Shown in pieces: positions 28,756 through 46,702 of a stretch of DNA of 48,929 nucleotides. The notes under the pieces were generated by a model. That model did not search any database. It had not been told where the DNA came from and saw only the letters and a list, made by a program, of their open reading frames with translations. A program made the position numbers and the translations under genes. The stretch's first letter is position 1, and every line of letters starts with the position of its first letter. The DNA comes from Bacillota bacterium (lineage in GTDB: Bacteria > Bacillota > Sulfobacillia > UBA8153), in assembly GCA_007130145.1 (NCBI GenBank), contig SLSY01000086.1, positions 1 to 48,929 of the forward strand, written 5' to 3'.

Positions 28756-29499
28756 CTAGGCCAACATGCCTCCATCCACCACTAAAACCTGACCGGTAAT
28801 ATACCCTGCAGCCTCTGAGGCAAGGAAGGTCACAAGCGATGTAACCTCCTCAACCCGGCCCATGCGACCCATGGGCACACGCGACAGCAGCTGTTCTCTG
28901 GCCGCCTCGGGCATGTCCTGGGCCATACCGGTCTCAATGAGGCCGGGAGCAATGGCGTTTACGGTAATACTCCGTGGCGCCAACTCACGCGCTGCCGCCC
29001 GGGTGAAGCCAATAACACCCGCCTTGGCCGCACAGTAATTGGCCTGACCAGCATTGCCTGTAAGCCCGGCCACCGAACACATGTTAATGATCCTCCCCCA
29101 GCGCTGCTTCAGCATGGTTCGTGATGCAGCGCGCGTACAATGAAACGTCCCGTCAAGGCTTGTGGCGATGACATCGCGCCAATTGTCATCGCTCATACGC
29201 ATCAAGAGCCCATCGCGGTTGACCCCAGCATTGTTGACCAGAATATCCAGCCGGCCGAACTCCTTTGCGCACTGGCGGACCATGTCCTGTGCTTCATTGG
29301 CATCGCTCACATCCGCCTGGTATAGAACACCTTTTCTGCCCTCTGCTCTCAGTTCCTGCAGAACGGCCTCGGCGGCTTCGCCATGGCTGCGGTAGTTAAC
29401 GATCACCGTCGCTCCCTGTCGCGCCATAGCCAGAGCCATGGCCTTCCCCAAACCGCGGGAAGAGCCGGTAATTAATGCTACTCGATTTTCAAGTAACAT
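28756..29499 (-). CDS. fabG: 3-oxoacyl-ACP reductase
   Basis: SDR motifs TGSSRGLG, NNAG and YCAAKAG. Start placed at Met10 of the ORF, adjacent to the fabD stop. Confidence 0.92.
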   Translation of the reverse strand: MLLENRVALITGSSRGLGKAMALAMARQGATVIVNYRSHGEAAEAVLQELRAEGRKGVLYQADVSDANEAQDMVRQCAKEFGRLDILVNNAGVNRDGLLMRMSDDNWRDVIATSLDGTFHCTRAASRTMLKQRWGRIINMCSVAGLTGNAGQANYCAAKAGVIGFTRAAARELAPRSITVNAIAPGLIETGMAQDMPEAAREQLLSRVPMGRMGRVEEVTSLVTFLASEAAGYITGQVLVVDGGMLA

Positions 29500-29500
29500 C

Positions 29501-31299: not shown

Positions 31300-31322
31300 C
31301 CTGTCGCCCTCCTCATCAGAAT

Positions 31323-32309
31323 CTACCAACGAACTACCGCAGAACCCCAAGTCAAACCACCACCAAAAGCAACCATCACCACATGATCTCCTTTTTGCAA
31401 CCGCCCCGTGGATTCCGCCTCCTCCAATGCCACGGGTATGGAGGCGGCCGACATGTTGCCATAACGATCAATGTTTATCATGACCTTCTCCATCCCCAAA
31501 CCAAAACGCTCGGCTGCCGCTTCAATGATCCGCAGATTGGCCTGGTGGGGAACTAAGAAATCCAGATCATCCATGGTCAGCCCGGCCTTCTTCAAGCCGG
31601 CAAAGGTAGCAGCCCCCATCGTTCGCACCGCAAAACGAAAGATCTGATTCCCGTTCATGTGCACATAGTGCATGCCATCGGCCAACGTCTGAACCGTAGC
31701 CGGCAAACGTGAGCCTCCGGCTGGTTGCTTGAGCAAATCAGCTCCGGCGCCGTCCGCGCCTAAATATGTCGACAGCAGCGTTCTCTCTCCCCGTGAGGGG
31801 CCCAGAACCGCCGCACCGGCTCCATCCCCCAGCAAGACACAGGTATTGCGGTCCTGCCAGTTCACGATACGAGACAATACTTCCGCACCGATGACCAGAA
31901 CGTGCCGATACATTCCCGTGGCGATGAACTGTGAGCCGACCGAAAGAGCATAAATAAAGCCCGAACACGCCGCTTCCAGGTCAAATGCTGCTGCTCTCAC
32001 CGCCCCCAGACGCTCTTGCACCAGACAGGCTGTAGACGGGAAGAGCATATCCGGCAGCACCGTAGCCACAATAATCAAATCAATATCCTGCGGCCGGACC
32101 TCAGCCCTCTCCATAGCTAGCCGGGCTGCGACAAGAGCCAGATCCGAGGTAGCTTCGTCGGGCGCAGCAATGCGTCGCTCACGAATGCCGGTCCGCGTAA
32201 CGATCCATTCATCGCTGGTATCCACCATTTGCTCCAAATCCTGATTGGTGAGACGGCGCTCGGGCACCATCGCCCCTAAACCCAGTATTCCGACGGGGAT
32301 GTCTGCCAT
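31323..32309 (-). CDS. fabH: 3-oxoacyl-ACP synthase III
   Basis: Active-site Cys in AACSGFIYAL, VPHQANLRI, and NMSAASIP...GGGLTWG. Confidence 0.92.
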   Translation of the reverse strand: MADIPVGILGLGAMVPERRLTNQDLEQMVDTSDEWIVTRTGIRERRIAAPDEATSDLALVAARLAMERAEVRPQDIDLIIVATVLPDMLFPSTACLVQERLGAVRAAAFDLEAACSGFIYALSVGSQFIATGMYRHVLVIGAEVLSRIVNWQDRNTCVLLGDGAGAAVLGPSRGERTLLSTYLGADGAGADLLKQPAGGSRLPATVQTLADGMHYVHMNGNQIFRFAVRTMGAATFAGLKKAGLTMDDLDFLVPHQANLRIIEAAAERFGLGMEKVMINIDRYGNMSAASIPVALEEAESTGRLQKGDHVVMVAFGGGLTWGSAVVRW

Positions 32310-32319
32310 TCTCTTTTGC

Positions 32320-33336
32320 CTACTCCTTCTTTGCCATGTTCTCTAACACGCTAGCCATCTCTTCCAGCGCTCCGCTGTCCAAATATTTCATCGCGTACAG
32401 AATTCCATTGGCTATCGCTTTGCCGTTGGAGGCACCGTGGCACTTTATACAGGGCTGAGCCAAACCCAAAAGAGGTGCTCCACCATACTCAGTATAATCA
32501 AGACGAGATTTCAATTCTCTCAGTGCCCCTTGCGCCAACCAGCCACCCATACGCGCACGAGTGCTACTATTCAAGGCGGACCCAAACATGGTGAATACCG
32601 CCTGCGCCACTCCTTCGGTACTCTTGAGAAGAAGGTTACCGGCGAACCCATCTGTCACCACCACTTCAACATCTCCCTGGTAGACATCGCGAGGCTCGAT
32701 GTTACCCACAAAGCGAATGGTCTCGGCTTCACTCAACAGCTGATAAGACTTCTTCGTGAACTCAGTTCCCTTGTTGGCTTCACCGCCAATATTGAGCAGG
32801 CCCACGGACGGGTTCTCACATTCGAGGGCGCCGCTGGCATAGGCCGATCCCATGACAGCCAGCTGTATCATCTGGCCGGGCCTCATGTCTGTGGATGCTC
32901 CAACATCTAGCACCGCGACCCCACGTCCTGTTACGGTCGGCAGTATGGTGCACAAAGCGGGTCGACTGATACCGGGCAAACGCCCCAGTACCAATGAACC
33001 ACCCACCAGCAATGCACCTGTATTGCCGGCGGAAACGAAGGCATCCCCCCGACCTTCCTTTACCAATCTGAGTCCCACAGCAATGGACGAATCGGGCTTA
33101 TGACGAAAGGCCTCAACCGGTGATTCATCATTGCCGATGATCTCGGATGCATGGACGATCTCCAGGTTATCGGGGCGCTTGAGCTCGGCTTCCTCAAAGG
33201 TGTCCTCCAGCACTTGCCGGTCACCGACCAACACCACATCGACATCAAGATAACAAGCAGCGGCCGTTGCGCCAGAAATGAGGGACAAGGGTGCTCGATC
33301 TCCACCCATACCATCAACCACTATGCAATGTCTCAT
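32320..33336 (-). CDS. plsX: Phosphate:acyl-ACP acyltransferase PlsX
   Basis: IVVDGMGGDRAP, VSAGNTGAL and GASNGKAIANGI. Confidence 0.93.
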   Translation of the reverse strand: MRHCIVVDGMGGDRAPLSLISGATAAACYLDVDVVLVGDRQVLEDTFEEAELKRPDNLEIVHASEIIGNDESPVEAFRHKPDSSIAVGLRLVKEGRGDAFVSAGNTGALLVGGSLVLGRLPGISRPALCTILPTVTGRGVAVLDVGASTDMRPGQMIQLAVMGSAYASGALECENPSVGLLNIGGEANKGTEFTKKSYQLLSEAETIRFVGNIEPRDVYQGDVEVVVTDGFAGNLLLKSTEGVAQAVFTMFGSALNSSTRARMGGWLAQGALRELKSRLDYTEYGGAPLLGLAQPCIKCHGASNGKAIANGILYAMKYLDSGALEEMASVLENMAKKE

Positions 33337-33916
33337 TGCTCTTATCGTCCTCCTCGTCCGGTTTGGACTCTAGGGCAAACACCACGAACTTACCACGGAA
33401 CACCTGCTTACCTTCAGCGCGGGTTACCACCAGAACGACGGTCTGACCACGGCGCTGCCGGATGACTTCAGCTCGGGCCACCAAACGATCTCCTACCTGT
33501 ACGGGCCGCTTGTACTTGACATTAGCCAAACCGGTCAGCACCGTATCGGCATCCACCAGCGCAATGGCCAGTGAATCGGCCTGTGCAAACACAAAATGCC
33601 CCCTTACCACTCCACTGCGGGCAAAGCCCATATCGCTGGTGGTTTCCAGGATAGAGACGGCACTTTGTCCCAGCTGCAAGTCAACCAATTCTCCCACAAT
33701 GTCCTGCGCCGCTATGGACTTAAGGGAGCTGTGTTCTCGCTGTGCTACCGCCCGTGTGCGCCGGCGTAACTCGGGGATGCCCAGCGCGAGGCGATCCAAG
33801 CGAATCGTCTGCACACTGACATCCAGCTGCTCGGCCAGATCGCGATCAGGCAGGAAGGGGTTATCCTCAAGCAATTCCTTGAGTGTGCATTGGCGCTCGG
33901 CGCGACTTGATGTCAA
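33314..33916 (-). CDS. fapR: Fatty acid/phospholipid synthesis repressor FapR
   Basis: SRAERQ..LKELLEDNPFLPDRDLAEQLDVSVQTIRLDRLALGIPELR is followed by a hot-dog thioesterase-like C-terminus. I placed the start at TTG 33916, 8 nt after GGGAGGTG. The ORF extends to 33952. Confidence 0.85.
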   Translation of the reverse strand: MTSSRAERQCTLKELLEDNPFLPDRDLAEQLDVSVQTIRLDRLALGIPELRRRTRAVAQREHSSLKSIAAQDIVGELVDLQLGQSAVSILETTSDMGFARSGVVRGHFVFAQADSLAIALVDADTVLTGLANVKYKRPVQVGDRLVARAEVIRQRRGQTVVLVVTRAEGKQVFRGKFVVFALESKPDEEDDKSNETLHSG

Positions 33917-33942
33917 CGGGCACACCTCCCTGAGACCTTCTA

Positions 33943-33993
33943 ATATGACCAACTACTAAGAGCAAGTATACATTAGTTTGGCCCCGGGGGCAA
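33943..33993 (-). promoter_or_regulatory. Candidate fapR-operon promoter (TTGCCC-17-TATACT) with an inverted repeat bracketing the -10
   Basis: The minus-strand -35 maps to 33988-33993 and the -10 to 33965-33970. ACTAA-N13-TTAGT (33955-33977) brackets the -10. A TTAGTA half-site is followed by GTTGGTCATAT (33943-33959). TTAGTA resembles my recollection of the FapR-box half-site. Confidence 0.3.
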
Positions 33994-34019
33994 TAGTTGA
34001 AAAACACCGCGCGAACGCC

Positions 34020-34052
34020 AAAAAAGCCCCGCTTAGACGCATCCAAGGGGGC
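34020..34052 (-). terminator. Rho-independent terminator after rpmF
   Basis: The minus strand reads GCCCCCTT-loop(10)-AAGCGGGGC, an 8 bp stem with a 1-nt bulge, followed directly by TTTTTT. Confidence 0.6.
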
Positions 34053-34077
34053 CCTGATCGCCTGCAAACAGGCAGAA

Positions 34078-34260
34078 TTATTTCTCTTCGACTTTAATGA
34101 CAGACCGATTATTGTAGTAACCACAACTGCCGCAAACCTGGTGTGGCATCTTCCAGTCGTGGCATCGAGGGCACTTGGCCAAATTCGGAGGCGTCAGTTT
34201 CCAATTGGCCCGACGCTTATCCCGTCTCGCCTTGGATGTCTTCTTCTTTGGTACAGCCAT
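34078..34260 (-). CDS. rpmF: 50S ribosomal protein L32
   Basis: MAVPKKKTSKARRDKRRA with Cys4 (CPRCHDWKMPHQVCGSCG). Start placed at Met3 of the ORF. Confidence 0.93.
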   Translation of the reverse strand: MAVPKKKTSKARRDKRRANWKLTPPNLAKCPRCHDWKMPHQVCGSCGYYNNRSVIKVEEK

Positions 34261-34262
34261 CG

Positions 34263-34802
34263 TCACCCACCCTTTTCTTGCTCTTCGATCTTCTTGCGTA
34301 ACTCTGCTAGAGCCTGCATGCGAGGATCAGGCGTTGCCTCTTCATCCTGCGTTACTCTCTCAAGTCCGGCACAATCCTCATCGCACAACGGTTTCATGGG
34401 AAGGGCCACAAGCAAGTGTTGCCGGATCGGCTCGAGCAAATCAATGTATTCGCCTTCTACCAGAAACCAGTCCTCTACATCCTCATCACTGTCCCGGGGC
34501 GCTTGTGATGCGATACGATACTCAATCAAAACCGGAATCTGTACGGGAAAGTCGCATCGCTGCAAACAGCGGGCACAGGTCTGTCGAGCAAGGCCCGCGA
34601 CTTCACCTCTGGCCAGTATTCCGGTACCGGTTGGACTCAATGTCACTTTCACCCGCACGGGCTCAGGAAACACCCGGTCATCGTCCGTCTCTTCGGGGAT
34701 GGCCATCTCGGCATCAATGTGGATGACTTCTCCAAAATCAGCCCGCTCCAACAGTGTCTGTACGCGAACTTTCACCTGAACACACCCCCACGCCACGCTC
34801 AT
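34263..34802 (-). CDS. yceD: YceD/DUF177 family protein (23S rRNA accumulation protein)
   Basis: Conserved position upstream of rpmF. It has a C-terminal Cys cluster and acidic tail (CARCLQRC...CDEDCAGL). Start taken at Met61 (34802), just after the stop of the upstream gene. Confidence 0.78.
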   Translation of the reverse strand: MSVAWGCVQVKVRVQTLLERADFGEVIHIDAEMAIPEETDDDRVFPEPVRVKVTLSPTGTGILARGEVAGLARQTCARCLQRCDFPVQIPVLIEYRIASQAPRDSDEDVEDWFLVEGEYIDLLEPIRQHLLVALPMKPLCDEDCAGLERVTQDEEATPDPRMQALAELRKKIEEQEKGG

Positions 34803-34812
34803 TCTACAGGCG

Positions 34813-35847
34813 TCAGGACGCCTTGTCAAGGGAAAAGAGCACTTGCACCGCCTCATCCAGGTTCCCAACGGGAAACACGTCGACGGTAGTGGCGGCTTGC
34901 TCCGCCTCTCGTGCGTTGGCTGCTGGCACCAGGAAGACATCGGCCCCCGCCTTCTCAGCGGCCTGAACCTTCTGCCGAACACCGCCCACGGGGTTCACAT
35001 TGGCATCACGATCCAGAATTCCGGTCCCGGCAATCACCAAACCCTGGGGCACCAGTTCCCGGTCGTAACGTCCCATAACCTGTAAGGTGAACATAAGACC
35101 AGCCGAAGGGCCTCCCACCTCACCAGCATCTATGGTAACATCACTGGGGCCAATGACTTGAGGACCAGCGGTCAGAACCATAATGCCGATGTACGATCTC
35201 ATCGCATCCTCTGGATGCTCACCCGTCTCTATCTCCACACTAGCGATCTCTTGCTCACGTGCATAGCGAACCGCTACTATGTCTCCCGGACTAATCTCCT
35301 GCAAGTAGGCAAGGAGTTCATCGCCCGTTTGGACCGTCATACTATCAAGATGAGTTATGACATCGCCCACCTTCAGCTCCCCATGAGCGGGAGCATCAGG
35401 AAGGACATAGGTAACCACCGCGCCTTCGCCCGCCATATGCACCGGATAACCCAGTTGCTCAAAGGCCAGCTGAATGGCTAGCGCCTGACTGTCCTTCATG
35501 AGCCACTGATTTTGAAGGTAGTATTCCTCGATCGTTTGCCCCGGTCGCAAGATGTTGGACAGATGAACCATGTCAATCCCGGGATGGAAGACACCGACCA
35601 CTGCCAGCCATAAACGGGCCTGATTAGTGAACACGGTTGTCATCAAGAGTCCTTGAGATTCTCCCGCCTGACCATCAACACTGATCATAGGACCCACATC
35701 CACAGCTTGTCCCGGCCGGAGGATTAAATAGTTGGTGGGCCAGCTAAGAAAGTAAAACGCCACAACGAGTATGACAGCTAGCACGGCAAGTCGCGCCACC
35801 TGGCGACGAGCGGCTCGCATCATAGCCACCAATCGATTACCCGTCAT
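34813..35847 (-). CDS. Membrane-anchored PDZ plus Lon-protease-C-terminal-domain protein (YlbL/SepM-like)
   Basis: N-terminal TM segment, a PDZ segment (GELKVGDVITHLD), and an S16 Lon catalytic domain with GGPSAGLMFTL (Ser) and GGVRQKV (Lys). Confidence 0.85.
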   Translation of the reverse strand: MTGNRLVAMMRAARRQVARLAVLAVILVVAFYFLSWPTNYLILRPGQAVDVGPMISVDGQAGESQGLLMTTVFTNQARLWLAVVGVFHPGIDMVHLSNILRPGQTIEEYYLQNQWLMKDSQALAIQLAFEQLGYPVHMAGEGAVVTYVLPDAPAHGELKVGDVITHLDSMTVQTGDELLAYLQEISPGDIVAVRYAREQEIASVEIETGEHPEDAMRSYIGIMVLTAGPQVIGPSDVTIDAGEVGGPSAGLMFTLQVMGRYDRELVPQGLVIAGTGILDRDANVNPVGGVRQKVQAAEKAGADVFLVPAANAREAEQAATTVDVFPVGNLDEAVQVLFSLDKAS

Positions 35848-36283: not shown

Positions 36284-38068
36284 TCAATCAGCGTCAGAAG
36301 CTACATCCTTAGCCTTGTCCTCCGCCTTATCCTCCGCCTTATCGGTAAAACGACCGCGTGCTGTATAGTGTGTGTGCAAGAGCTCGTGAGACTTGTGTCC
36401 TAACGGCTTCTCCAGATACTCCTCGTACAGCTCCTTTACGGCTGGATTGTCATGGGACTTGCGTAAGGCTAAGTCCTTATCGGCTTGGTAAATGCCACCG
36501 ATTCTCTGTTGGCGGGTCTCGGTGTTGGTGGGAATGGGTTGTCCGCCACCACCAATGCATCCACCGGGGCAACACATGATCTCGACGAAGTGCCAATCGG
36601 CCTCTCCGCTCTTGATGCGTTCCATGAGCTCGCGGGCATTGCTCAACCCATGGCTCACAGCGACCTTAACCGTTGTGCCGGCCACGTCCACTTCCGCTTC
36701 CTTGATACCCTGGAGACCGCGCACCGGTTCAAAGTCCAGACCCGGCAGTTCATCGCCGGTGAGAACCTCATAGGCCGTGCGCAGGGCAGCCTCCATCACA
36801 CCACCAGTAGCGCCGAAGATCACTGCAGCACCCGTGCTCATGCCCAGCGGTGCATCATAATCTTCCTCTTCCAAGGATCTGAAGTCGATGCCTGCCTCAG
36901 CTATCATACGACCCAGCTCGCGAGTGGTGAGCACATAGTCCACATCCTGGTAGCCACTGGAGTTCATCTCGGGGCGCTGGGCCTCGAACTTCTTGGCAGT
37001 ACAAGGCATGATGGACACAACCACAATGCTGGCCGGGTCAATGCCCGCCTTCTCTGCGTAGAAGGTCTTGGCTAACGCACCGAACATCTGCTGCGGCGAC
37101 TTACACGTGGACAGGTTGGGCAACAACTCCGGATAGAAGTGTTCAATGAACTTGATCCATCCCGGGCTGCAAGACGTGAACATGGGCAAGACTCCGCCAC
37201 TTTGGATCCGGTCGATCAGCTCGTGCCCTTCCTCCATGATGGTCAGGTCTGCCGTGAAATCAGTATCGAACACGCGATCAAATCCCAATGCGCGCAGAGC
37301 GGCTACGAGTTTGCCGGTGCTCACTTCACCCACATCCAGACCGAAGGCTTCTCCAATCGAGACACGAATGGCTGGAGCAGTCTGCACCACCACGTGTTTT
37401 TCTGGATCGGACAGCACAGCCCAAACATCGTCTACGTATTCCTTCTCCGTCAGGGCTCCTACCGGGCACACCAGTGTGCACTGACCGCACATGGTGCACG
37501 CTGCCTCCTGCAGCTTGTCCCCGAAGGCAGGACCCACCGTGGTTTCCATGCCACGTTCGTTCAGGCCAATGGCGGATACACCCTGCACATGTTCGCACAC
37601 AGCAATGCAGCGGCGACACAGGATGCACTTCTCCGGATCTCGCACGATGGACGGGGTAGACGAATCAACCGGTCTCTCTACACGCTCGCCTTCAAAACGA
37701 GACTCTCTAATGCCCATCTCCGCGGTCAGATCCTGCAGTTCGCAGTGCTGATTGCGCACACATGTAAGGCATTCAAACGGGTGATCCGATAAGATCAATT
37801 CCAGATTCAAGCGCCGCGCTTTACGCACCGGGGCACTATTGGTTGAGATCTCCATGCCTTCACCCACTGGAGTTACGCAAGCGGCCTGCAAGGTGCGGGC
37901 ACCCTTGACTTCAACCACGCAAATCCGACACGAACCGACCACATTGACGTCTTCCAGGTAACACAACGTCGGGATCTTGATCCCAGCCTGCTGCGCCGCC
38001 TCCAATATGGTGGTTCCACTTTCGACCTGTACCTTTTTCCTGTCTATGGTCAATGTAACCAAAGCCAC
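36284..38068 (-). CDS. [FeFe]-hydrogenase HydA-like large subunit (bifurcating HydABC / StnC-like) with a variant L1 motif
   Basis: N-terminal plant-type 2Fe-2S and His-ligated/2x[4Fe-4S] domains (CYLEDVNVVGSCRIC, HPFECLTC, CILCRRCIAVC, CTMCGQCTLVCP). H-domain motifs are L1 FTSCSPGW, L2 MPCTAKKFE and L3 EIMCCPGGCIGGGGQP. Confidence 0.92.
   Translation of the reverse strand: MALVTLTIDRKKVQVESGTTILEAAQQAGIKIPTLCYLEDVNVVGSCRICVVEVKGARTLQAACVTPVGEGMEISTNSAPVRKARRLNLELILSDHPFECLTCVRNQHCELQDLTAEMGIRESRFEGERVERPVDSSTPSIVRDPEKCILCRRCIAVCEHVQGVSAIGLNERGMETTVGPAFGDKLQEAACTMCGQCTLVCPVGALTEKEYVDDVWAVLSDPEKHVVVQTAPAIRVSIGEAFGLDVGEVSTGKLVAALRALGFDRVFDTDFTADLTIMEEGHELIDRIQSGGVLPMFTSCSPGWIKFIEHFYPELLPNLSTCKSPQQMFGALAKTFYAEKAGIDPASIVVVSIMPCTAKKFEAQRPEMNSSGYQDVDYVLTTRELGRMIAEAGIDFRSLEEEDYDAPLGMSTGAAVIFGATGGVMEAALRTAYEVLTGDELPGLDFEPVRGLQGIKEAEVDVAGTTVKVAVSHGLSNARELMERIKSGEADWHFVEIMCCPGGCIGGGGQPIPTNTETRQQRIGGIYQADKDLALRKSHDNPAVKELYEEYLEKPLGHKSHELLHTHYTARGRFTDKAEDKAEDKAKDVASDAD
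36313..36345. repeat. Tandem 12-nt repeat (about 2.7 copies) encoding the (K-A-E-D)n tail of the HydA-like protein
   Basis: CCTTGTCCTCCG / CCTTATCCTCCG / CCTTATCGG, read directly from the sequence. The protein tail is DKAEDKAEDKAKD. Confidence 0.7.
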
Positions 38069-38093
38069 AGTCTATCCCTCCCTCCTATCTAAC

Positions 38094-41000
38094 CTACTCA
38101 GGCACGTCACAACGCAGGCAGCGAGCCGCTTCTTTCTTGGCCGCCTCCTCGTCATATCCGGTCTCCACTTCAGTGAAGGAACCCAAACGCTCCTCACAGC
38201 TGACACATATCGCGGGCATCTTCTCCCGCGGCATGACTTGCTCGGACACCTCGGCACGCAACACGCGTTCCACCGGCAGTTCCGGAACCACATCCCCGTG
38301 TCCGCCAAGGTACTTGTCAATGGAGCCGGCGGCCAGCTTACCAGCCTGTACGGCCTTAATCACCGTCGCTGGCCCTGTCACCAAATCGCCTCCGGCAAAT
38401 AGGCCGTCCACTCCGGTAACGCCGGCCTCGGTCGCCAGCACTGTGCCATTTCGCATGGTTTCCAGACCACACTCGGCCATAAGTTCTCCGGTGGGAACCT
38501 GGCCAATGGCGGTAATGACTACATCAGCTGGAATCTCGAACTCGGAGTCTTCCACCGGCAGGCTGCGACGCCGTCCGCTGCTGTCAAAGTCACCTGACCG
38601 CATGGTAATGCACTGTAAGGCCGCTACCTTACCATCCTGCCCCAGTGCCTTGACCGGGTTGACCATGGGCAGGATCTTGATGCCTTCATGAAGAGCTTCC
38701 TCGATTTCCAGACGCTCGGCCGGCATATCCTGCAAGCTGCGACGGTAAACAATGGTCACGCTCTCGGCACCCAAGCGTAGCGAAGAACGAGCGGCATCGA
38801 TAGCTACATTGCCACCGCCGACCACTACGACTCGCTTGCCTTGCACCTCACCCTGGCCGGAGATGTTCAACAGGCGCAAGAAAGCAGCACCGGGCTTAAT
38901 ACCCTCCAAATCCTCACCTTCAATACCCAAACTCTGATCGTTATGGGCACCAATGGCCAGGTAGATAGCATCAAAGCCTTGATCCTTCAAGTCTTGTAGC
39001 GTGAAGTCACGTCCCAAGGCTTGTCTGGTGCGGATCTCAACGCCAGCCTGGGTTATGGCCTGTATCTCTTTGTCCAGAACAGCTCTGGGCAAACGGTACT
39101 CAGGGATGCCCACCGTCAGCATACCACCAGCGACGGGCTGTGCTTCAAACACCGTGATATCATAGCCCTTGCATCCCAGATAGTATCCGGCACTCAAACC
39201 CGCTGGCCCCGCCCCTACAATGGCTACCTTCTTACCGTTATCCGGCAACCTGTCCACTTCGGGCCAGCAATCGTTCTCGATGACATAGTCCGAAGCAAAG
39301 CGCTTCAGGGCGCGGATGGCAACCGGTTCGTCGATCTGTTCACGCCGGCACCGCGCTTCGCAGGGATGGTCACATACCCGGCCACATACCACCACGAAGG
39401 GATTCTGACGGCGCACCGTCTTGTAGGCTTCCACGTACTCACCGGCCCTGACTTGATCGACGTAGATCGGCACGTCCACCTCGGCCGGACAGGTGTTTTG
39501 ACACGGCGAATCAAACAGAGAAGCGCACACAGACGCCGGACACTTGCGATCGCGGATGTGTGCTTCGTATTCGTCGCGGAAGAAATTGATGGTGCTAAGA
39601 ACAGGGTTGGGAGCCGTCTGCCCCAAGCCGCACAGCGCTGTGCTCTTGATTGATTCGCCCAGTTCCTGCAGCATCTCGATGTCCCCGTCTTGGCCTTCGC
39701 CCCGGGTGATGCGCTGGAGGATCTCCAGCATACGCTTGGTGCCGATACGACAAGGCGTACACTTGCCACAAGACTCATCCTGCACGAATTCCAGGAAGAA
39801 CTTGGCCAAGTCCACCATACAAGTATCTTCGTCCATAACGACGAGCCCACCAGAGCCCATGATGGTTCCCAACGACTGTAACGATTCATAGTCAATGGGT
39901 GTATTCAAGTGCTCCACCGGGATACATCCACCGGAAGGACCACCGGTTTGCGCGGCCTTGAACTTGCGATGGTTGGGAATGCCGCCACCGATATCATATA
40001 TGATGTCACCCAACGATGTTCCCATGGATACCTCGACCAGACCATTGTTGTTGATGGCCCCAGCCAGAGCGAACACCTTCGTACCCGGCGACTTCTCCGT
40101 ACCCATGGTAGTGAACCAGTCGGCACCTTCACGCAAGATGGGTGCGATATTGGCAAATGTCTCCACGTTGTTGAGAACCGTTGGCTTGTCCCACAAACCA
40201 GAATTGGCAGGAAACGGTGGTCGCGGACGCGGTTCGCCGCGCCGCCCCATAATGGATGTGAGAAGAGCCGTTTCTTCTCCACACACAAAGGCACCCGCAC
40301 CGAGCCGGATGTCAATGTCGAAGTCAAACCCGCTGCCAAAGATGTTCTTGCCCAAAAGGCCCTTTTCTCTCGCCTTTTCAATGGCCAGATACAGGCGCCT
40401 AACGGCAATGGGATACTCGGCGCGGATATAGATGTAACCTTGGTTGGCCCCAACGGCATAGCCAGCAATGGCCATACCTTCCAGGATGGAATGGGGGTCG
40501 CCCTCAAGGATACTGCGATCCATGAAAGCACCAGGATCACCTTCATCTGCGTTACACACCACGTACTTGGGTGAACCATCAGCTCGAGCGGTGAATTCCC
40601 ACTTCATACCCGTTGGGAATCCGCCTCCGCCCCGGCCTCGCAATCCTGACTTTCTGACCTCGGCCACCACATCTTCGGGCTTCATTTCAAGCAAGACCTT
40701 GCCGAGACCAAGATAGCCATCTTGCGCAATATACTCTTCCAGAGACTCAGGATCAATAAGTCCACAGTTGGCCAGCACGATACGCTCTTGCTTCTTGAAA
40801 AAGTCGATATCCTGAAAATCAGATACCGTCATCTCTGCATCAGGCGGATGATACAATAGCCGCTGGACCACACGTCCTTTTAGGAAGTGCTCAGACACAA
40901 GTTCGGGTACATCCTCCAAATGGACTTCACAGTACATGACGCCCTCAGGATACACCACCATGTTAGGACCAAAGCGACAAAAACCGAAGCATCCGGTTTC

Positions 41001-41156
41001 GACAATGCGAATCTCACGCTCGAGCCCGTTATCCTCGATTTCCTCCTTGAGCGCTTGGCGCAAGGCCGTACTGTTTGAGGCCTCACATCCAGTACCGGCA
41101 CACACCAGCACATGGCTTCGGAACAAATCCACAGAGAACCTCCTCCCTTCTTCCAC
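38094..41156 (-). CDS. Fusion protein: Trx-like [2Fe-2S] + NuoF/HydB-like FMN/NADH module + GltD/NfnB-like FAD/NADPH module
   Basis: aa 1-100: VLVCAGTGC...GCFGFC. aa 125-535: GRGGGGFPTG, ADEGDPGAF, ESCGKCTPCR...LCGLG. aa 538-1020: CPASVC..CQNTCP, VCGRVCDHPCEARC, VAIVGAGPAGLSAG, VVVVGGGNVAIDAARS, TIVYRRS..DMPA. Confidence 0.93.
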   Translation of the reverse strand: MEEGRRFSVDLFRSHVLVCAGTGCEASNSTALRQALKEEIEDNGLEREIRIVETGCFGFCRFGPNMVVYPEGVMYCEVHLEDVPELVSEHFLKGRVVQRLLYHPPDAEMTVSDFQDIDFFKKQERIVLANCGLIDPESLEEYIAQDGYLGLGKVLLEMKPEDVVAEVRKSGLRGRGGGGFPTGMKWEFTARADGSPKYVVCNADEGDPGAFMDRSILEGDPHSILEGMAIAGYAVGANQGYIYIRAEYPIAVRRLYLAIEKAREKGLLGKNIFGSGFDFDIDIRLGAGAFVCGEETALLTSIMGRRGEPRPRPPFPANSGLWDKPTVLNNVETFANIAPILREGADWFTTMGTEKSPGTKVFALAGAINNNGLVEVSMGTSLGDIIYDIGGGIPNHRKFKAAQTGGPSGGCIPVEHLNTPIDYESLQSLGTIMGSGGLVVMDEDTCMVDLAKFFLEFVQDESCGKCTPCRIGTKRMLEILQRITRGEGQDGDIEMLQELGESIKSTALCGLGQTAPNPVLSTINFFRDEYEAHIRDRKCPASVCASLFDSPCQNTCPAEVDVPIYVDQVRAGEYVEAYKTVRRQNPFVVVCGRVCDHPCEARCRREQIDEPVAIRALKRFASDYVIENDCWPEVDRLPDNGKKVAIVGAGPAGLSAGYYLGCKGYDITVFEAQPVAGGMLTVGIPEYRLPRAVLDKEIQAITQAGVEIRTRQALGRDFTLQDLKDQGFDAIYLAIGAHNDQSLGIEGEDLEGIKPGAAFLRLLNISGQGEVQGKRVVVVGGGNVAIDAARSSLRLGAESVTIVYRRSLQDMPAERLEIEEALHEGIKILPMVNPVKALGQDGKVAALQCITMRSGDFDSSGRRRSLPVEDSEFEIPADVVITAIGQVPTGELMAECGLETMRNGTVLATEAGVTGVDGLFAGGDLVTGPATVIKAVQAGKLAAGSIDKYLGGHGDVVPELPVERVLRAEVSEQVMPREKMPAICVSCEERLGSFTEVETGYDEEAAKKEAARCLRCDVPE

Positions 41157-41177
41157 TCTCCAAAACTAATTGCATCT

Positions 41178-41552
41178 TCATTCTTCTCGTGACTCACTTA
41201 CGTTGAGCGCCCATTCGGATATGACATTGCCATTGGCCACGTGTTGTGCCACGATCTGCCGGGCTCGGCTGGGCGAAACTTCTCCATACGTCACCCGGGG
41301 CTGTCCAGGCATGAAGACATCTACCAGGGGCTCACGCGAGCAAATGCCCACGCATCCTGTCTGTGTCACGACGGCCTTGAGGCGGCGCTTGTTCAATTCA
41401 TCCAGGATAGATTCCAGTGCATCACGAGCGCCAGCAGCAATACCACAGGTACCCATACCCACGACGATGCGGGCCTCATCCTGTCCCTGACGGACCCGGA
41501 TATCTTCCTTCACTCTATCCTTGATCTCTCTGAGCTCTTCCAGAGACTTCAC
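41178..41552 (-). CDS. Thioredoxin-like [2Fe-2S] ferredoxin (HydD/HndB-like)
   Basis: 124 aa with VVGMGTCGIAAGA and QTGCVGICSREP (four Cys). GTG start in a TAGTG overlap with the upstream stop, preceded by GGAGGTG. Confidence 0.85.
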   Translation of the reverse strand: MKSLEELREIKDRVKEDIRVRQGQDEARIVVGMGTCGIAAGARDALESILDELNKRRLKAVVTQTGCVGICSREPLVDVFMPGQPRVTYGEVSPSRARQIVAQHVANGNVISEWALNVSESREE

Positions 41553-42103
41553 TAGATTTCACCTCCTCTGAGGTCTTGGATACTGGTCCGGTATGTGTCC
41601 CGTACCCACTTTACCACTTGCGGATGGTTGATGGGTAGATCATCCAACTCCTCACGCATGCGGCGCGTGTCGAACACGCACTCTTGACCATTATAACAGT
41701 GGTGATACACGAGGTCTAGATGGGGATTGGTTGCCACAATGATAGCCAGTGTGCCACCCATATCGCCCAGTGGCGGTCGATCAACGTGCGAATGCTGAAA
41801 GACTGCTACTACCCGTGTTCCGCCCCTTGGTGCCGCCGTTACCTTCAGGTACCCGTCACTTTGCTCACATGCTTGCGCCAGCAAGGGTAAGCCCAATCCT
41901 ACCCGCCGGGTCTTGCGCGTGGTGACAAAGGCATCGGCCACACTCGCACGCATTTGTTCATCCATGCCGGGGCCGTCATCATCCACCATCACGGTCAACC
42001 GATCCTCGGTTGTGTCTTCATCGATGTTGACCCAGATGCAGCGAGCGCCAGCCGCACGGCTGTTCTCATACAGGTCCAACAGGTGAAGAGCCAGTTCCTC
42101 CAA
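41552..42103 (-). CDS. Stand-alone GHKL (HATPase_c) ATPase domain protein, no DHp/HisKA domain
   Basis: N-box-like LDLYENSRAAGA, G1 VDDDGPGMD and G2 RRVGLGLPLL. Only 183 aa. Wedged between the NuoE-like and Trx-like genes. Confidence 0.8.
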   Translation of the reverse strand: MEELALHLLDLYENSRAAGARCIWVNIDEDTTEDRLTVMVDDDGPGMDEQMRASVADAFVTTRKTRRVGLGLPLLAQACEQSDGYLKVTAAPRGGTRVVAVFQHSHVDRPPLGDMGGTLAIIVATNPHLDLVYHHCYNGQECVFDTRRMREELDDLPINHPQVVKWVRDTYRTSIQDLRGGEI

Positions 42104-42104
42104 T

Positions 42105-42602
42105 TCAGTTGCTTTCCGGCTTGCGATAGCGTTCTAGCAGGGCAGACACGCGATCAGCCTTAATCCGCGCATGGGTGTCTTCGTTAACCGTCAGCACAGG
42201 AGCCAAGCCACATGCGCCCAAACAACGAACCACCTCTAGTGAGAACTCCCGGTCATCGGTGGTATCCCCGGGTGAAATGCCCAATTCCCTCTGCAGTCTC
42301 TCCAGCACCTTGGGAGCACCTCGGACATAACAGGCTGTTCCCTGACAACAGTTCACTTGAACGCGTCCCTTGGGTTTCAGTGAGAAGAGTGAATAGAACG
42401 TGACCACACCATAGATCTCGGCCAAGGAGACGTTCAGTCCCTCAGCGATCATCTCCTGAGCTTTTCTGGGCACATAGCCGAGTGACTCCTGGGCTGTGTG
42501 GAGCACCTGAATCAACGCACCTGCGTTACCACGATTTGTCTCGATAGCCTTCTCAAGTGCACCGTAATCCTCTTCCTGGCAAACACAAACCTTTTCCTCC
42601 AA
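42105..42602 (-). CDS. NuoE/HydC-like [2Fe-2S] subunit
   Basis: CCQGTACYVRG...VRCLGACGLAP is the Cx4C...Cx3C NuoE motif, with LIQVLHTAQE near the N-terminus. Confidence 0.9.
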   Translation of the reverse strand: MEEKVCVCQEEDYGALEKAIETNRGNAGALIQVLHTAQESLGYVPRKAQEMIAEGLNVSLAEIYGVVTFYSLFSLKPKGRVQVNCCQGTACYVRGAPKVLERLQRELGISPGDTTDDREFSLEVVRCLGACGLAPVLTVNEDTHARIKADRVSALLERYRKPESN

Positions 42603-42604: not shown

Positions 42605-43366
42605 CTAGTTCCTCCCTTCTCTGACGCCTACTAAGGCCAGCCGGTGGCCATCATCACCCCGGCAAGCCTTACGAAATGATTCTAGATCCAGCCGCTGACA
42701 ATACACACCCGTCTTCTGTCGCCCCACCTCGCTTCTGTGATGCGCATCAGACGATGTTACCAAGGCGATCGACTCGCCAATGGCATGCATCCTCCGCAGC
42801 GCATCCGTATTTCTGCCACCGGACACCTCTAGAGCTGTGACCCCGAGGCCTTCCGGCACAAAACCCAGTACTCCTAGCAACCCGAAGCTCTCTCTCTCAA
42901 TGTGGGCCGGTATACTTACCCCCCCTAAGGCCCGGGTCATATCAACCACCTGCTCCAGTGAATAGCCACTGGCTGTGGATAGCATGTTGTCCTCTTCTCC
43001 GACCACCCGGTTCGTGCAGTCGTAAATCAGCTGCTCTCCTAACACACGCGCCATAGATCGCCGGCGGAGAAGAGTATCACCTATTTGCTGCGACATATCT
43101 TTTGCTTGCTCAAGGGACGAGAAGATGCAAAGGACATGGACTTCTTCACTGGTCTCCACCTCAAGGCCCGGCCAAACGATCAAGTCGAAGGGCTCTGCCT
43201 GGCACATCACCGCCTCGCAATTGAGAGCACTGTTATGGTCGGTTATGGCGATGGCATCCAATCCCACTTCCAGGGCTGCCGTCACCACACCGTGAGGATC
43301 CATATCAGCTCCAGCGCAAGGCGAGAGCGCAGTGTGCACATGGAGATCAACCAGGTGCCACTTCAT
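42605..43366 (-). CDS. PHP-domain metal-dependent phosphoesterase
   Basis: VDLHVHTALSPC, AITDHNS and SDAHH. The start at Met13 forms an ATGA overlap with the upstream stop (43363-43366). Confidence 0.85.
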   Translation of the reverse strand: MKWHLVDLHVHTALSPCAGADMDPHGVVTAALEVGLDAIAITDHNSALNCEAVMCQAEPFDLIVWPGLEVETSEEVHVLCIFSSLEQAKDMSQQIGDTLLRRRSMARVLGEQLIYDCTNRVVGEEDNMLSTASGYSLEQVVDMTRALGGVSIPAHIERESFGLLGVLGFVPEGLGVTALEVSGGRNTDALRRMHAIGESIALVTSSDAHHRSEVGRQKTGVYCQRLDLESFRKACRGDDGHRLALVGVREGRN

Positions 43367-43716
43367 TCTTTGTCCTTTAGGCATGCAAACAAGCGACCAC
43401 ACACCTCAAAACTGCGCGACGATGCACTGAACAAGGCCACCTGCTCTCGCCTGGCCGTCTCGAGCGTCTCGGGTTTAACTGGCCGATCTCCCGTGATCAC
43501 TATGCCAGCCATTCCCACCAGAACGGCCACAGCCACGATGTTCTGATGGCTTTGCATCGTAACCCACAAACTGCCTTCTTGAGCATGCGCCATCACGTCC
43601 GAGAGCAGGTCTCCCACATACCCTGCCTTTACCGGGCGCTCGGGATCATATGAGCCCTGAGGACACAATTCGAGTGCTTCCACAACTTCAACCAGCTTCA
43701 CCATCATCATCCTCAC
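43363..43716 (-). CDS. DRTGG-domain protein
   Basis: About 115 aa with GYVGDLLSDVMAHAQEGSLWVT and AGIVITGDRPVKPETLETARREQVALF. The start lies among clustered Met codons at 43704-43716 and overlaps the upstream gene end. Confidence 0.78.
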   Translation of the reverse strand: MRMMMVKLVEVVEALELCPQGSYDPERPVKAGYVGDLLSDVMAHAQEGSLWVTMQSHQNIVAVAVLVGMAGIVITGDRPVKPETLETARREQVALFSASSRSFEVCGRLFACLKDKE

Positions 43717-45019
43717 TCTGTTGAGTATGCGACTTCATCCCCATGGAGCGGGGCAGGTGCCGGGCCAAGTCAACTATTTCTTCAGCCATTCCGTGAACTC
43801 GTTCACGCAGCTTCAGCACACAATCCATCTCATCTGCGTAACCGCGTACAATATCCTCTGCCAAGGCTCGACAGCTGGGAGCGCCACAAGCTCCGCAATC
43901 CAAGCCGGGCAGTTGATCTTCCACCGCTTCCAGCTGGCGGAGTTTGTCAATGGCGCGAGATATATCATCGTCGAGTCTGAGCACGGGGCGCGCTTTTACC
44001 TCGCTCAGGTAGGTGAAGTAGTCACTCTTTAGACGTTGCTCTAACCCGGGGGTCGCCTCCTCGCCATGTGCCCCGCGTTCGGCAGCCAGATTACGCACTC
44101 GTACACGAGCGACAAAGGGATTTTCCACGGCCAAACACCCACCCACGCAACCCGTAACACAAGCCTGGGCCTCTATGAAGTCCAGTCCGGCCAGCTTGTC
44201 TCGCTCCACTTCTTCAAAGACTTTAATGCACTGGTGAATGCCATCCACGGCAAGAGAATCTCGCCCCATGATCGTGGTCTCACCGCCGGAGCGCCCCCAA
44301 CCCATTCCGTAACCCGAAGCCTTAGGAATGAGAGGAGCGCGGGCCGCATGCTCCATTTGCCGCAAACATTCGGCATAAATAGCAGACATGGAGAAGGCTC
44401 CATCAACCGCGCTCTTGTCACGACCCACCGGCTGCTTGATCGCCGTTACCTTGGCCGGACAAGGAGAAACGAAAAAGACTCCATGCTCGGGACCGAGAGT
44501 GTCCTTGGCAATCTTAGCTGCCATCTCCATGGGAGACTCTAGTTTGATCAAATGATCGAGAAGCGCGGGGAAACGCACCTGAATCAGGCGCACCACGGCC
44601 GGACAAGCAGAAGAAATCAAGGGACGGGGTGAGGAATGTTCCTTCAAGTAACGCCGCATCGCCATGGATACGGCATCGGCGGCCAGCGCCACTTCATACA
44701 CTTCGTCAAAACCGATCAACCGTAAAGCACTCAGTACCACTCCTGGATCAGGCGTAGGAAACTGTCCCATGAAAGCCGGCGCCGGTATGATCACTGACTT
44801 GGGATATGCCTTCACGAGGTCCAGCGAATCGGTGACGGCCAGCTTAGCATGGTTAGGGCAGACACGAATGCATTCCCCGCAATCAATGCACCGTTCTTCA
44901 AAGATCCAAGCTCGCCCGTCCCTCACCCGAATCGCTTCGGTAGGGCAGCGCTTAATGCAGTTGGTACACCCTTTACACTTTTCTGCATCTAAGGTGACTG
45001 AATGGTAGTAGTCGGCCAC
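43688..45019 (-). CDS. Sensory-type [FeFe]-hydrogenase homologue (HydS-like) lacking a PAS domain
   Basis: N-terminal 2x[4Fe-4S] (CKGCTNCIKRCP, CIDCGECIRVCP). H-domain variants are SSACP, SPCPAK and EAQACVTGCVGG. C-terminal CGACGAPSC-x16-C. I placed the start at GTG 45019, 6 nt after AGGAGG. The ORF is open to 45106. Confidence 0.85.
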   Translation of the reverse strand: MADYYHSVTLDAEKCKGCTNCIKRCPTEAIRVRDGRAWIFEERCIDCGECIRVCPNHAKLAVTDSLDLVKAYPKSVIIPAPAFMGQFPTPDPGVVLSALRLIGFDEVYEVALAADAVSMAMRRYLKEHSSPRPLISSACPAVVRLIQVRFPALLDHLIKLESPMEMAAKIAKDTLGPEHGVFFVSPCPAKVTAIKQPVGRDKSAVDGAFSMSAIYAECLRQMEHAARAPLIPKASGYGMGWGRSGGETTIMGRDSLAVDGIHQCIKVFEEVERDKLAGLDFIEAQACVTGCVGGCLAVENPFVARVRVRNLAAERGAHGEEATPGLEQRLKSDYFTYLSEVKARPVLRLDDDISRAIDKLRQLEAVEDQLPGLDCGACGAPSCRALAEDIVRGYADEMDCVLKLRERVHGMAEEIVDLARHLPRSMGMKSHTQQSEDDDGEAG

Positions 45020-45111
45020 AGCCGTCCTCCTGAATTGAACTAGTTTTGTCATGCATTGCATGGGTCCTGCCGCTGCCCGTATATCCGGGCCTCCGTCAGG
45101 GAGCAAACGTC

Positions 45112-45567
45112 TTACTCTCGACCTTTGCTGAAAAAAAGCAATCGCAAGGTTGTACCCTTGTCCACAACCGAATCAAGGTGCATTTGATCGACACAACGCT
45201 TAATGTTGGTCAGCCCCATGCCCGCCCCGAACCCCATTTCCCGCACGTGCGTCGGGGCCGTCGAGTATCCATCCTGCATCGCCAAATCAATATCTGGAAT
45301 GCCTGGCCCCTCATCCTCAACGCATATTTCTATGCGCTCCGGACCAATCTTCGCCACCAAGCATCCGCGGTGCGCGTGAATCACCACATTGATTTCGGCT
45401 TCATAGGTTGCGCTGGCTACACGTCTAATCATATCCGCCGGCATGCCCAGTTGCGTCATAGTGCGCTTGATTCCTGTCGCCGCTTCCCCGGCCGTTGTGA
45501 AATCCATTCCCTTGATTCTAAACTCCAGTACGATACGGGAATCATTGTTCGGTCGGGCGTCATTCAC
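45112..45567 (-). CDS. RsbW/SpoIIAB-like GHKL serine-protein-kinase (anti-sigma-factor-like)
   Basis: 151 aa with AGEAATGIK, N-box YEAEINVVIHA, G1 VEDEGPGIPD and G2 GFGAGMGLTNIKR. Confidence 0.8.
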   Translation of the reverse strand: MNDARPNNDSRIVLEFRIKGMDFTTAGEAATGIKRTMTQLGMPADMIRRVASATYEAEINVVIHAHRGCLVAKIGPERIEICVEDEGPGIPDIDLAMQDGYSTAPTHVREMGFGAGMGLTNIKRCVDQMHLDSVVDKGTTLRLLFFSKGRE

Positions 45568-45593: not shown

Positions 45594-46148
45594 TCACGAA
45601 TTACAACCGGGAAGACCCGCTTTATAGAGTAAACCACAGCTCGTGTACAGCAAGTGGTCGGTGGCAAGCAGAGGTAAACCGCGCTCAGCTGCCATTTCCA
45701 GCACCTTTTCAGACGGGAGTGGACGCTTGCCCCTGACGAACACGACGGCACTGGCATCAATGATATACGCACTGTGAATCACTTGGACGTTCGTCAACCC
45801 GGTCAAAAGGACAACACCGGGCTTGCCAAAGGTCAAGAAGTCGCTCATCATGTCGCAACCAAAGGCCGACTCAACCACCAGTTCCTTGTGCTCCTCGCCG
45901 GTCAAGAAGGTAGCATCAAGCAACTCCTGTATCTGACCTAGTTTAATGGGTCTCAACCTCCTGGTCTTGGTAATCCATAATGTCTGTGCAACCAATAATA
46001 CATTCAGCACGCGCCAAGGTATTTCCTGCCCTTCCAACCCACTTGTCGGAGAACTATTTGGTTTTCGCATGAATAAGCGGCATAAGCGGATCAAAATATG
46101 GGCCAGAGGGCGTGAGACGGCATGTGAAGTAGAATATCCAACCGTCAT
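45594..46148 (-). CDS. DRTGG-domain protein, true start probably near 45945
   Basis: The C-terminal roughly 115 aa are DRTGG-like (CDMMSDFLTFGKPGVVLLTG, AVVFVRGKRPLPSEKVLEMAAERGLPLLAT). The N-terminal roughly 65 aa of the ORF look non-protein-like. AGGAGG sits at about 45954-45959. Confidence 0.7.
   Translation of the reverse strand: MTVGYSTSHAVSRPLAHILIRLCRLFMRKPNSSPTSGLEGQEIPWRVLNVLLVAQTLWITKTRRLRPIKLGQIQELLDATFLTGEEHKELVVESAFGCDMMSDFLTFGKPGVVLLTGLTNVQVIHSAYIIDASAVVFVRGKRPLPSEKVLEMAAERGLPLLATDHLLYTSCGLLYKAGLPGCNS
46073..46089. repeat. Tandem ATAAGCGG-N1-ATAAGCGG upstream of the hyd/stn-like operon
   Basis: Read directly from the sequence, with a period of 9 nt. It lies in the probable untranslated region upstream of the first DRTGG gene. 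Confidence 0.5.
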
Positions 46149-46330: not shown

Positions 46331-46702
46331 ATGCTCGGCAATATCATCAGGCAATACCGCATGGATAAAGGCCTTTCACTGCGTGCATTTGCTTCTAGAT
46401 GTGGACTGAGTCACAGTTACGTAGACATGCTCGAGAAGGGACACGACCCTCGCAACGGTCAATCGCCCCGGCCGAGTATAGACACCCTGATCGCGCTGGC
46501 CAAGGGGCTGGAAATTGAGGCGCGTGAACTGATGGCCCATGCGGACCACCTGTCGTCGGCAGAACGACAAGACATTGAGTCCTTCGCCATTGCGTACAGA
46601 GAAGACCCCCTGTCCGATCTTCCTGAGCATGCACGTCTTTGTGTCGAACGATTCATCCAAAGAATGCGGCATAAATACGGGGTAAAGGAAACACGCGACT
46701 GA
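46331..46702 (+). CDS. XRE-family helix-turn-helix transcriptional regulator
   Basis: IIRQYRMDKGLSLRAFASRCGLSHSYVDMLEKG is a Cro/C1-type HTH. The palindrome CGGTGAgTCACCG (46316-46328) lies just before the ATG. Confidence 0.8.
   Translation: MLGNIIRQYRMDKGLSLRAFASRCGLSHSYVDMLEKGHDPRNGQSPRPSIDTLIALAKGLEIEARELMAHADHLSSAERQDIESFAIAYREDPLSDLPEHARLCVERFIQRMRHKYGVKETRD

Follow-up and report, generated by a model that had tools for sequence, protein, structure and literature searches.

The locus described here raises the question of whether an [FeFe]-hydrogenase is used by its cell to turn over H2 or to sense it, and, in the latter case, which proteins receive the signal. The gene in question, hydS, lies on the minus strand of a 48,929-nucleotide stretch of Bacillota DNA (contig SLSY01000086.1, which we call the window). 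It belongs to a five-gene cassette, which is directly followed by the genes of a HydABC-type hydrogenase. The original prediction was that of a “PAS-less HydS-type putative H2 sensor” whose output must go through separate partner proteins. We found that HydS almost certainly belongs to group D, also called M2e, and is an orthologue-level relative of TamHydS, the group D type enzyme of Thermoanaerobacter mathranii. The order of genes in the cassette is near-invariant in about 80 genomes, and HydS is repeatedly fused to one of its cassette neighbors. The best explanation overall, to which we assign a probability of roughly 0.6, is that HydS is a group D H2 sensor whose output runs through the cassette and controls the adjacent hydrogenase.

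The predicted category corresponds to the M2e or group D class of the literature, where the role as a sensor is putative as well. The family was described in 2010–2012, and its biochemistry has been studied since 2019. Its members are PAS-less putative sensors that adjoin kinases and bifurcating hydrogenases (PMC3561251). They lack the PAS domain of M2f (group C) enzymes, but resemble these in having N-terminal clusters and a Cx2Cx4Cx16C motif and in having lost the proton relay of Cys299, and they carry a hydroxyl residue at the Met353 position and a variable residue at the Met497 position (PMC8163306). Functionally, the group is defined by an H-cluster, slow turnover of H2, a stabilized Hred state and low sensitivity to CO. 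The published hallmarks include the Cx2Cx4Cx16C motif shared with Thermotoga HydS (PMC8163306, PMC3561251).

With residues counted from a GTG start at position 45,019, HydS is a protein of 443 amino acids (43,688–45,019, TGA stop). Pfam searches reveal two N-terminal [4Fe-4S] motifs in a ferredoxin-like domain (Fer4; 44,846–44,998; C15, C18, C21, C25 and C44, C47, C50, C54), then the H-domain (Fe_hyd_lg_C; 44,138–44,797; E = 2.6e-33) and finally a C-terminal [4Fe-4S] domain (PF04060, “FeS”; 43,817–43,912; E = 8.7e-13). Alignments and a motif census predict C139, C187, C287 and C291 as the H-cluster ligands. The C-terminal domain contains CGACGAPSC-x16-C (43,820–43,897; C375, C378, C383, C400), which is an exact Cx2Cx4Cx16C motif, as had been claimed. 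All 16 of the 16 Fe-S and H-cluster cysteines, including the eight N-terminal ones, are invariant in an alignment of 48 sequences. Judged by its residues, the cofactor scaffold thus appears complete: the four H-cluster cysteines and the lysine of PCxAK, the two N-terminal sites and the C-terminal site are all present.

Direct reading of the sequence yields SSACP as the L1 motif (residues 136–140; 44,600–44,614), SPCPAK as L2 (residues 185–190; 44,450–44,467) and EAQACVTGCVGG as L3 (residues 283–294; 44,138–44,173). In CpI numbering, the pocket therefore has Ala at the proton-relay Cys299, Ser at Met353 and Gln at Met497, while the ligand Cys300 is kept. These are the substitutions on which the original prediction was based, and they match published hallmarks of group D (PMC8163306, PMC3561251). 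A Pfam scan at E ≤ 0.01 found no PAS, HisKA, MCP or PP2C domain in HydS, in agreement with the prediction. As a positive control, the same type of scan detected the PAS domain of a group C enzyme (locus L036, 16,022–17,773; E = 2.6e-6).

HydS is 50% identical to TamHydS, for which we used a 435-residue reference rebuilt from the coding sequence in the supplement of PMC13104023 (17 of 17 published residue numbers match). It is 57% identical to P0028 (WP_018084276.1), which Table S6 of the same paper assigns to group D. The corresponding values are 24–27% for PAS-bearing group C enzymes, 30% for a group B enzyme and 22–25% for group A HydA proteins. Placement among groups A–D had been proposed as a check, and we performed it by neighbor joining with 200 bootstraps. 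In this distance-based tree of a small sample, where group C consists of enzymes from one family (Lachnospiraceae, including the published Clostridium phytofermentans enzyme, P0192) and group B of one sequence, the window HydS and TamHydS share a group D clade (100%) apart from groups A, B and C. Group C also forms a clade (100%), and groups C and D are joined at 86%.

HydS further retains the proton path E252, E289, S249 and D265 (TamHydS numbering), within the segments WGRSGGE, AVDG and FIEAQAC. This path, with S or T at position 249, was reported as exclusive to group D, along with Ala at the Cys299 position (PMC10407848). Other TamHydS residues noted as conserved (PMC10407848, PMC13104023) are kept as well, namely R30, R32, R42, K58, D378, C379, E392, D393, D403 and C404. 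The gene also adjoins those of a kinase-like ATPase and of a bifurcating-type, multimeric hydrogenase of group A, a neighborhood described for group D (PMC3561251, PMC8163306).

More than 8000 homologues of about 440–460 residues have the same architecture. Among the 120 closest, none has a PAS domain, and Cx2Cx4Cx16C occurs in all 120; it is also found in 120 of 120 group C matches. Aligning the motif columns, another check that had been suggested, gave SSACP (58 sequences) or SSSCP (49) for L1, [ST]PC[PA]AK for L2, with Ser or Thr at the Met353 position in 119 of the 120, and EAQAC (58) or ECQAC (49) for L3. The SSACP, SPCPAK and EAQAC of the window are thus the commonest forms. By contrast, the motifs of HydS differ from TSCCPxW, MPCxxKxxE and ExMxCxxGCxxG of group A, an Fe_hyd_SSU domain is missing, and the NCBIfam models for groups A and B1 score it at 82 and 152 bits, against cut-offs of 406 and 450 bits. 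Nor does HydS fit group C, given that it has no PAS match and falls outside the group C clade. Because identity, tree, proton-path residues and motif census agree, we regard HydS as typical of a class that is very large and already has a name, and as ordinary in sequence.

hydS comes third in a run of ten genes on the minus strand, all read in the same direction and either closely spaced or overlapping, in the order DRTGG1, SpoIIAB-like ATPase, HydS, DRTGG2, PHP, HydC/NuoE-like, second GHKL ATPase, [2Fe-2S] ferredoxin-like, HydB and HydA. The first five form the cassette and are translationally coupled. DRTGG1 (45,594–45,956) and DRTGG2 (43,363–43,704) each have a Pfam DRTGG domain; DRTGG2, for which a sequence search of the PDB found no relative, shares about 17 nucleotides with the 3′ end of hydS. 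Directly 5′ of hydS is the gene for a 151-residue GHKL ATPase (45,112–45,567; Pfam HATPase_c and HATPase_c_2) resembling SpoIIAB and RsbW, a putative Ser/Thr kinase. Its PDB relative is SpoIIAB (E = 1.7e-8), and an NCBIfam match to anti-sigma F factor is below the cut-off. The fifth gene encodes a metal-dependent phosphoesterase of the PHP family (42,605–43,366; Pfam PHP), with a marginal PDB relative only by sequence search. Its likely start, ATG at 43,366, overlaps the stop of DRTGG2.

We compared 80 loci from GTDB species genomes by tblastn. The cassette order DRTGG, SpoIIAB-like ATPase, HydS, DRTGG, PHP proved near-invariant: the ATPase gene is directly upstream of hydS in 77 of 79 loci and DRTGG2 directly downstream in 70 of 75, while DRTGG1 is present in 76 of 78 and PHP in 64 of 71. 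What varies is the position of the cassette relative to hydCBA. It is ahead of these genes, as in the window, at 23 loci, divergent at five, and inside the operon, with the nuoE-like hydC on one side and the second ATPase gene on the other, at 29. The second GHKL ATPase stays with the structural genes in every arrangement. The intra-operon form was seen in Oscillospiraceae and Acutalibacteraceae-type genomes (for example, L054, 5,346–13,484). The cassette also exists in Clostridium thermocellum (Cthe_0335 region), Caldicellulosiruptor bescii (Athe_1292 region) and Thermoanaerobacter.

Across loci, the N, G1 and G2 ATP-binding boxes of the cassette ATPase and the metal-binding His/Asp motifs of the PHP protein are conserved. 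Given this conservation of catalytic motifs, both proteins are probably active enzymes. Both DRTGG paralogues have a motif, D-[LM]-[LM]-S-D, that is nearly invariant in about 75 loci; in the window it appears as GCDMMSD and GDLLSD (45,851–45,865 and 43,590–43,610). It is pure speculation that its Ser could be a candidate phospho-acceptor.

Fusions supply the second line of evidence. Three of the first 120 homologues are about 565 residues long and have a C-terminal DRTGG domain. Searches of NCBI, JGI, ENA and Logan raised the number of full-length HydS::DRTGG2 fusions to at least 14 distinct 90% clusters, with 51–85% identity. The fused domain is orthologous to DRTGG2 (41–46% identity) and not to DRTGG1 (27–32%). 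At locus L081, the fusion occurs in place of a separate DRTGG2 gene, and the order is DRTGG, ATPase, HydS::DRTGG, PHP, NuoE, ATPase, ferredoxin, HydB, HydA. The added domain sits where the PAS domain sits in group C enzymes. Such gene fusions are classical evidence that two proteins work together, in this case HydS and DRTGG2. Together with the near-invariant synteny, they support the prediction that output goes through separate partner proteins. We found no connection between DRTGG domains and hydrogenases in a full-text literature search, although the cassette might have been described elsewhere. Within our analysis, only the cassette and the fusions may add to what we found in the literature.

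These observations suggest the following mechanism. By analogy with TamHydS, HydS would bind an H-cluster, turn over H2 slowly and with high affinity, build up a stable reduced state under H2 and change its conformation. From its PAS-equivalent position, and going by the synteny and the fusions, DRTGG2 might read this H2-dependent change. The kinase-like ATPase and the PHP phosphoesterase could then turn the signal into a reversible switch, either of a phosphorylation type or nucleotide-dependent, and this switch would adjust how active the co-encoded hydrogenase is or how much of it is made. We offer this specific route through the DRTGG, ATPase and PHP proteins tentatively. The weakest step is the conjecture that control of the hydrogenase is post-translational rather than purely transcriptional. 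We favor it because hydS and its presumed target are transcribed together, the gene often being located inside the target operon. It is possible, but rather doubtful, that DRTGG2 is a functional stand-in for PAS and that HydS, the two DRTGG proteins, the SpoIIAB-like kinase and the PHP protein make up an undescribed H2-responsive post-translational switch acting on the HydABC-type enzyme.

Several points weigh against a sensor with this output. The role of group D as sensors is still putative, and Greening et al. (2024) list the group as functionally undefined (PMC11216029). H-cluster binding by the window HydS is predicted from its conserved ligands only, and the tree that supports its classification is small, distance-based and thinly sampled in groups B and C. 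In a 2026 study of TamHydS, the C-terminal cluster was not reduced by H2, and removal of one of its ligands barely changed catalysis (PMC13104023), which undermines redox signaling through that cluster. Since hydS is co-transcribed with the presumed target, simple transcriptional control would be autoregulatory. The cassette contains nothing identifiable as a phospho-acceptor, a DNA-binding protein or a sigma factor. A gene of the XRE helix-turn-helix family lies upstream of the cassette in divergent orientation (46,331–46,702, plus strand), but there is no homologue near hydS elsewhere in the 80 loci. We therefore rejected it as the regulator of the system, and it is probably unrelated. Finally, hydE, hydF and hydG did not turn up in the annotated part of the window, although no search was aimed at them.

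The same surroundings could be read in metabolic terms. HydS would then be a low-rate module that produces or oxidizes H2 and exchanges electrons with ferredoxin or with HydABC, and the DRTGG, ATPase and PHP proteins would function in assembly or would be unrelated. The two N-terminal clusters do form a normal electron relay, the gene is within the structural hydCBA operon at 29 loci, and TamHydS is catalytically competent, in a group that is still called functionally undefined (PMC11216029). However, the proton relay of group A is absent, TamHydS is about 200-fold less active (PMC6984386) and its reduced state is stabilized (PMC8163306). Further points against it are the constant link of the gene to those of a phosphoesterase and a SpoIIAB-like ATPase whose catalytic motifs are intact, the sister relationship to PAS-bearing group C and the fusion of DRTGG at the position of PAS output. 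We consider the metabolic explanation unlikely, and the role of HydS to be probably regulatory or sensory instead.

Far less probable is that HydS is an Fe-S protein without an H-cluster, similar to Nar1/NARF or RnfB, which senses redox state or transfers electrons without binding H2. This idea draws on database labels, given that some homologues are called “RnfB” or “4Fe-4S binding protein”, on the C-terminal PF04060 domain of HydS, which RnfB has as well, and on the Fe_hyd_lg_C score, which is 116 bits for HydS versus 354 bits for the adjoining group A HydA. Yet neither the four H-cluster cysteines nor the lysine of PCxAK vary, and the 50%-identical TamHydS has a verified H-cluster (PMC8163306, PMC6984386). 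The RnfB model TIGR01944 matches with 48.1 bits, below its cut-off of 68.7, and covers only residues 391–438 of the 472-residue form of HydS, a protein that also has an H-domain. The AlphaFold2 model of HydS is of high quality by its own scores (predicted local distance difference test 91.7, predicted template modeling score 0.88), and Foldseek retrieved only true [FeFe]-hydrogenases with it (probability 1.0). Sequence and fold searches of the PDB found no solved structure from group C or D, and the best sequence matches were group A enzymes and enzymes of hydrogen-dependent CO2 reductases (E ~1e-18). Clustering with Nar1- or RnfB-like proteins, which the original prediction had named as evidence against itself, was not seen. 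We rejected an RnfB- or Nar1-like identity on the basis of Pfam, NCBIfam, the tree and the fold search.

The idea that HydS is a truncated or decayed group C sensor of the Thermotoga HydS type, whose output domain was lost in this genome, can be dismissed with near certainty: the N-terminal clusters, H-domain and Cx2Cx4Cx16C are indeed common to both, but HydS is 50–64% identical to full-length PAS-less relatives versus 24–27% to group C, its closest homologues end as it does (43 residues past the motif in the window; medians of 39 in group D, n = 120, and 175 in group C), its SSACP, SPC and ExQAC contrast with TTCCP, GPC and EANIC, and the overlap between its stop codon and the next gene is conserved, so that identity, tree, motifs and lengths together refute it.

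Two details of the gene model had been described differently. The open reading frame at 43,688–45,106 is present as reported, and would encode 472 residues if read from TTG at 45,106. The original prediction correctly noted an AGGAGG (45,026–45,031) with a spacer of 6 nucleotides before GTG at 45,019, but considered the start ambiguous. Translation from this GTG begins MADYYHSV, which fits the M-x-x-[YF][YF]HSV of aligned homologues, and all full-length relatives in the alignment start two to four residues ahead of [YF][YF]HSV. The database form of the protein (P0001) has 443 residues, corresponding to the same start. No aligned homologue has a counterpart to the 29-residue extension up to TTG at 45,106. 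Because the ribosome-binding site, the homologous N termini and the database form agree, we conclude that GTG at 45,019 is the true start. The alternatives TTG at 45,106, ATG at 45,061 and ATG at 45,052 are ruled out, as they have no usable ribosome-binding site and the extension is absent from homologues. The open in-frame stretch at 45,020–45,106, which holds the AGGAGG, is most likely untranslated.

At the other end, the protein extends 43 residues past the last cysteine of the motif, rather than the approximately 50 first given. The acidic tail SEDDDGEAG that had been pointed out exists, but it is not conserved among homologues. It is encoded by GAGG ATG ATG ATG G, bases that double as the ribosome-binding site and the start codons of DRTGG2, the overlapping gene. 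We therefore rejected the tail as a functional feature, and consider it most likely a by-product of gene overlap and translational coupling. The start of DRTGG1 is uncertain. Its reading frame is open to 46,148 (184 codons), its homologues match only the last 115–120 or so residues, and an AGGAGG abuts TTG at 45,956 without a spacer.

The genes of the presumed target enzyme were assigned by Pfam, NCBIfam and synteny. They are co-oriented with the cassette, tightly packed and located at 36,284–42,602: HydC/NuoE-like (42,105–42,602), a second GHKL ATPase of 183 residues with conserved N and G boxes (41,552–42,103; between hydC and the ferredoxin-like gene), the [2Fe-2S] ferredoxin-like protein (41,178–41,552), HydB (38,094–41,156) and the group A HydA (36,284–38,068). 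HydB has 1020 residues and consists of a NuoF-like part (FMN/NADH, [4Fe-4S]) fused to a GltD/NfnB-like FAD/NAD(P)H module, which suggests that this HydABC enzyme is a variant linked to NADPH. Among the 80 related loci, the full GltD fusion was found only in L001; it also occurs in L081 (1005 residues).

In the HydA of the window, the L1 motif at about residue 300 is TSCSPGW, compared to the canonical TSCCPxW, and Ser thus occupies the position of Cys300 (CpI numbering), a ligand of [4Fe-4S]H. This is not an error: Acetobacterium woodii HydA1, whose structure is solved (7q4v), has TSCSPGW too, as do 30 of the 31 HydA genes adjoining group D sensors.

A scan for promoters and terminators of the operon gave counts that are not above the expectation from shuffled sequences. 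Downstream of hydA (3′ side; 26,501–35,847, minus strand) are genes for a PDZ/Lon-like protease and a DegV-family protein, along with plsX, fabH, fabD, fabG, fabF and rnc. Given these Bacillota-type housekeeping genes, the hydrogenase locus is chromosomal. Its composition shows no anomaly (fraction of G plus C, 0.54–0.57).

Some related loci have properties of their own. L001 (Ignavibacteriales bacterium MAG146) has the highest HydS identity among the fetched loci, and nearly all other relatives are Bacillota. A binning error or horizontal transfer may explain its label. L036 (Clostridium sp. KNHs205; 3,466–17,773) contains four groups of [FeFe]-hydrogenases within 15 kb: group A is represented by a HydABC operon, group D by the cassette, group B by an enzyme of 515 residues, and group C by a PAS enzyme of 583 residues accompanied by a SpoIIE-type phosphatase. 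We used its hydrogenases as an internal reference set. In L081, from a Syntrophomonadaceae metagenome-assembled genome, a 767-residue hydrogenase-PAS-HisKA-HATPase fusion is followed by a sigma54-dependent response regulator (356–4,039), adjoining the group D cassette. This locus thus carries two different putative H2-sensing systems.

The hydS gene of the window, taken by itself, is one more sequence in a very large class and carries little weight. By contrast, the near-invariant cassette and the recurrent HydS::DRTGG fusions point to concrete partners, i.e., the DRTGG proteins, the SpoIIAB-like ATPase and the PHP phosphoesterase. If our explanation is true, it would account for how fermentative and syntrophic Bacillota adjust their electron-bifurcating hydrogenases to the partial pressure of H2, and it would matter for the transfer of H2 between species and for the yields of H2 and ethanol.

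Among known systems, the closest is TamHydS, which was characterized from 2019 to 2026 (PMC6984386, PMC8163306, PMC10407848, PMC11803613, PMC13104023). It shows low activity and high affinity for H2, its Hred state is stable, and H2 induces a change in its structure (PMC8163306, PMC6984386, PMC13104023); its H-cluster has been verified spectroscopically (PMC8163306, PMC6984386). The two proteins have the same domain order and similar lengths (435 and 443 residues), an identical L1 motif SSACP (A137/C138 in TamHydS), and both SPCxAK and Cx2Cx4Cx16C. The residues of the alternative proton path and of the interdomain salt bridges are conserved in the window HydS. Both genes are upstream of a trimeric group A hydrogenase and adjoin a histidine-kinase-like ATPase (PMC8163306, PMC10407848, PMC13104023). 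However, the Met497 position is Leu in TamHydS and Gln, as in the majority of group D, in the window HydS. K35 is replaced by Arg and S384 by Ala, and E122 and K126 of TamHydS are not conserved. In addition, the presumed target in the window has a HydB fused to a GltD-like module.

Group C enzymes, the sister clade, likewise combine two N-terminal clusters with an H-domain that lacks the group A proton pathway and with the Cx2Cx4Cx16C cluster domain, and hydrogenase operons as well as genes for kinases or phosphatases are found close to their genes. They differ in their C-terminal PAS domain, in their low identity to the window HydS, and in their motifs (TTCCP or TTSCP, GPCIAK and EAN/DIC). 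In L036, the gene for a SpoIIE/PP2C phosphatase follows that of the group C enzyme.

The regulatory [NiFe]-hydrogenases (HoxBC/HupUV with the HoxJ kinase) offer a functional parallel. They are slow and inhibitor-tolerant, and they report H2 to a kinase such that an energy-converting hydrogenase is controlled (see also PMC8163306). However, they belong to an unrelated protein family with a different cofactor, and their output consists of a PAS-containing histidine kinase and a response regulator, neither of which is in the hydS cassette.

The partner-switching systems SpoIIAB/SpoIIAA/SpoIIE and RsbW/RsbV/RsbU resemble the proposed output. Like them, the cassette has a small SpoIIAB-like GHKL ATPase (matching PDB entry 1th8) and a phosphoesterase, and its two small single-domain proteins could be substrates or partners of the ATPase. 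In the cassette, these small proteins are DRTGG domains, without a STAS-domain antagonist or a sigma factor, the phosphatase is of the PHP type instead of PP2C, and phosphorylation is only putative.

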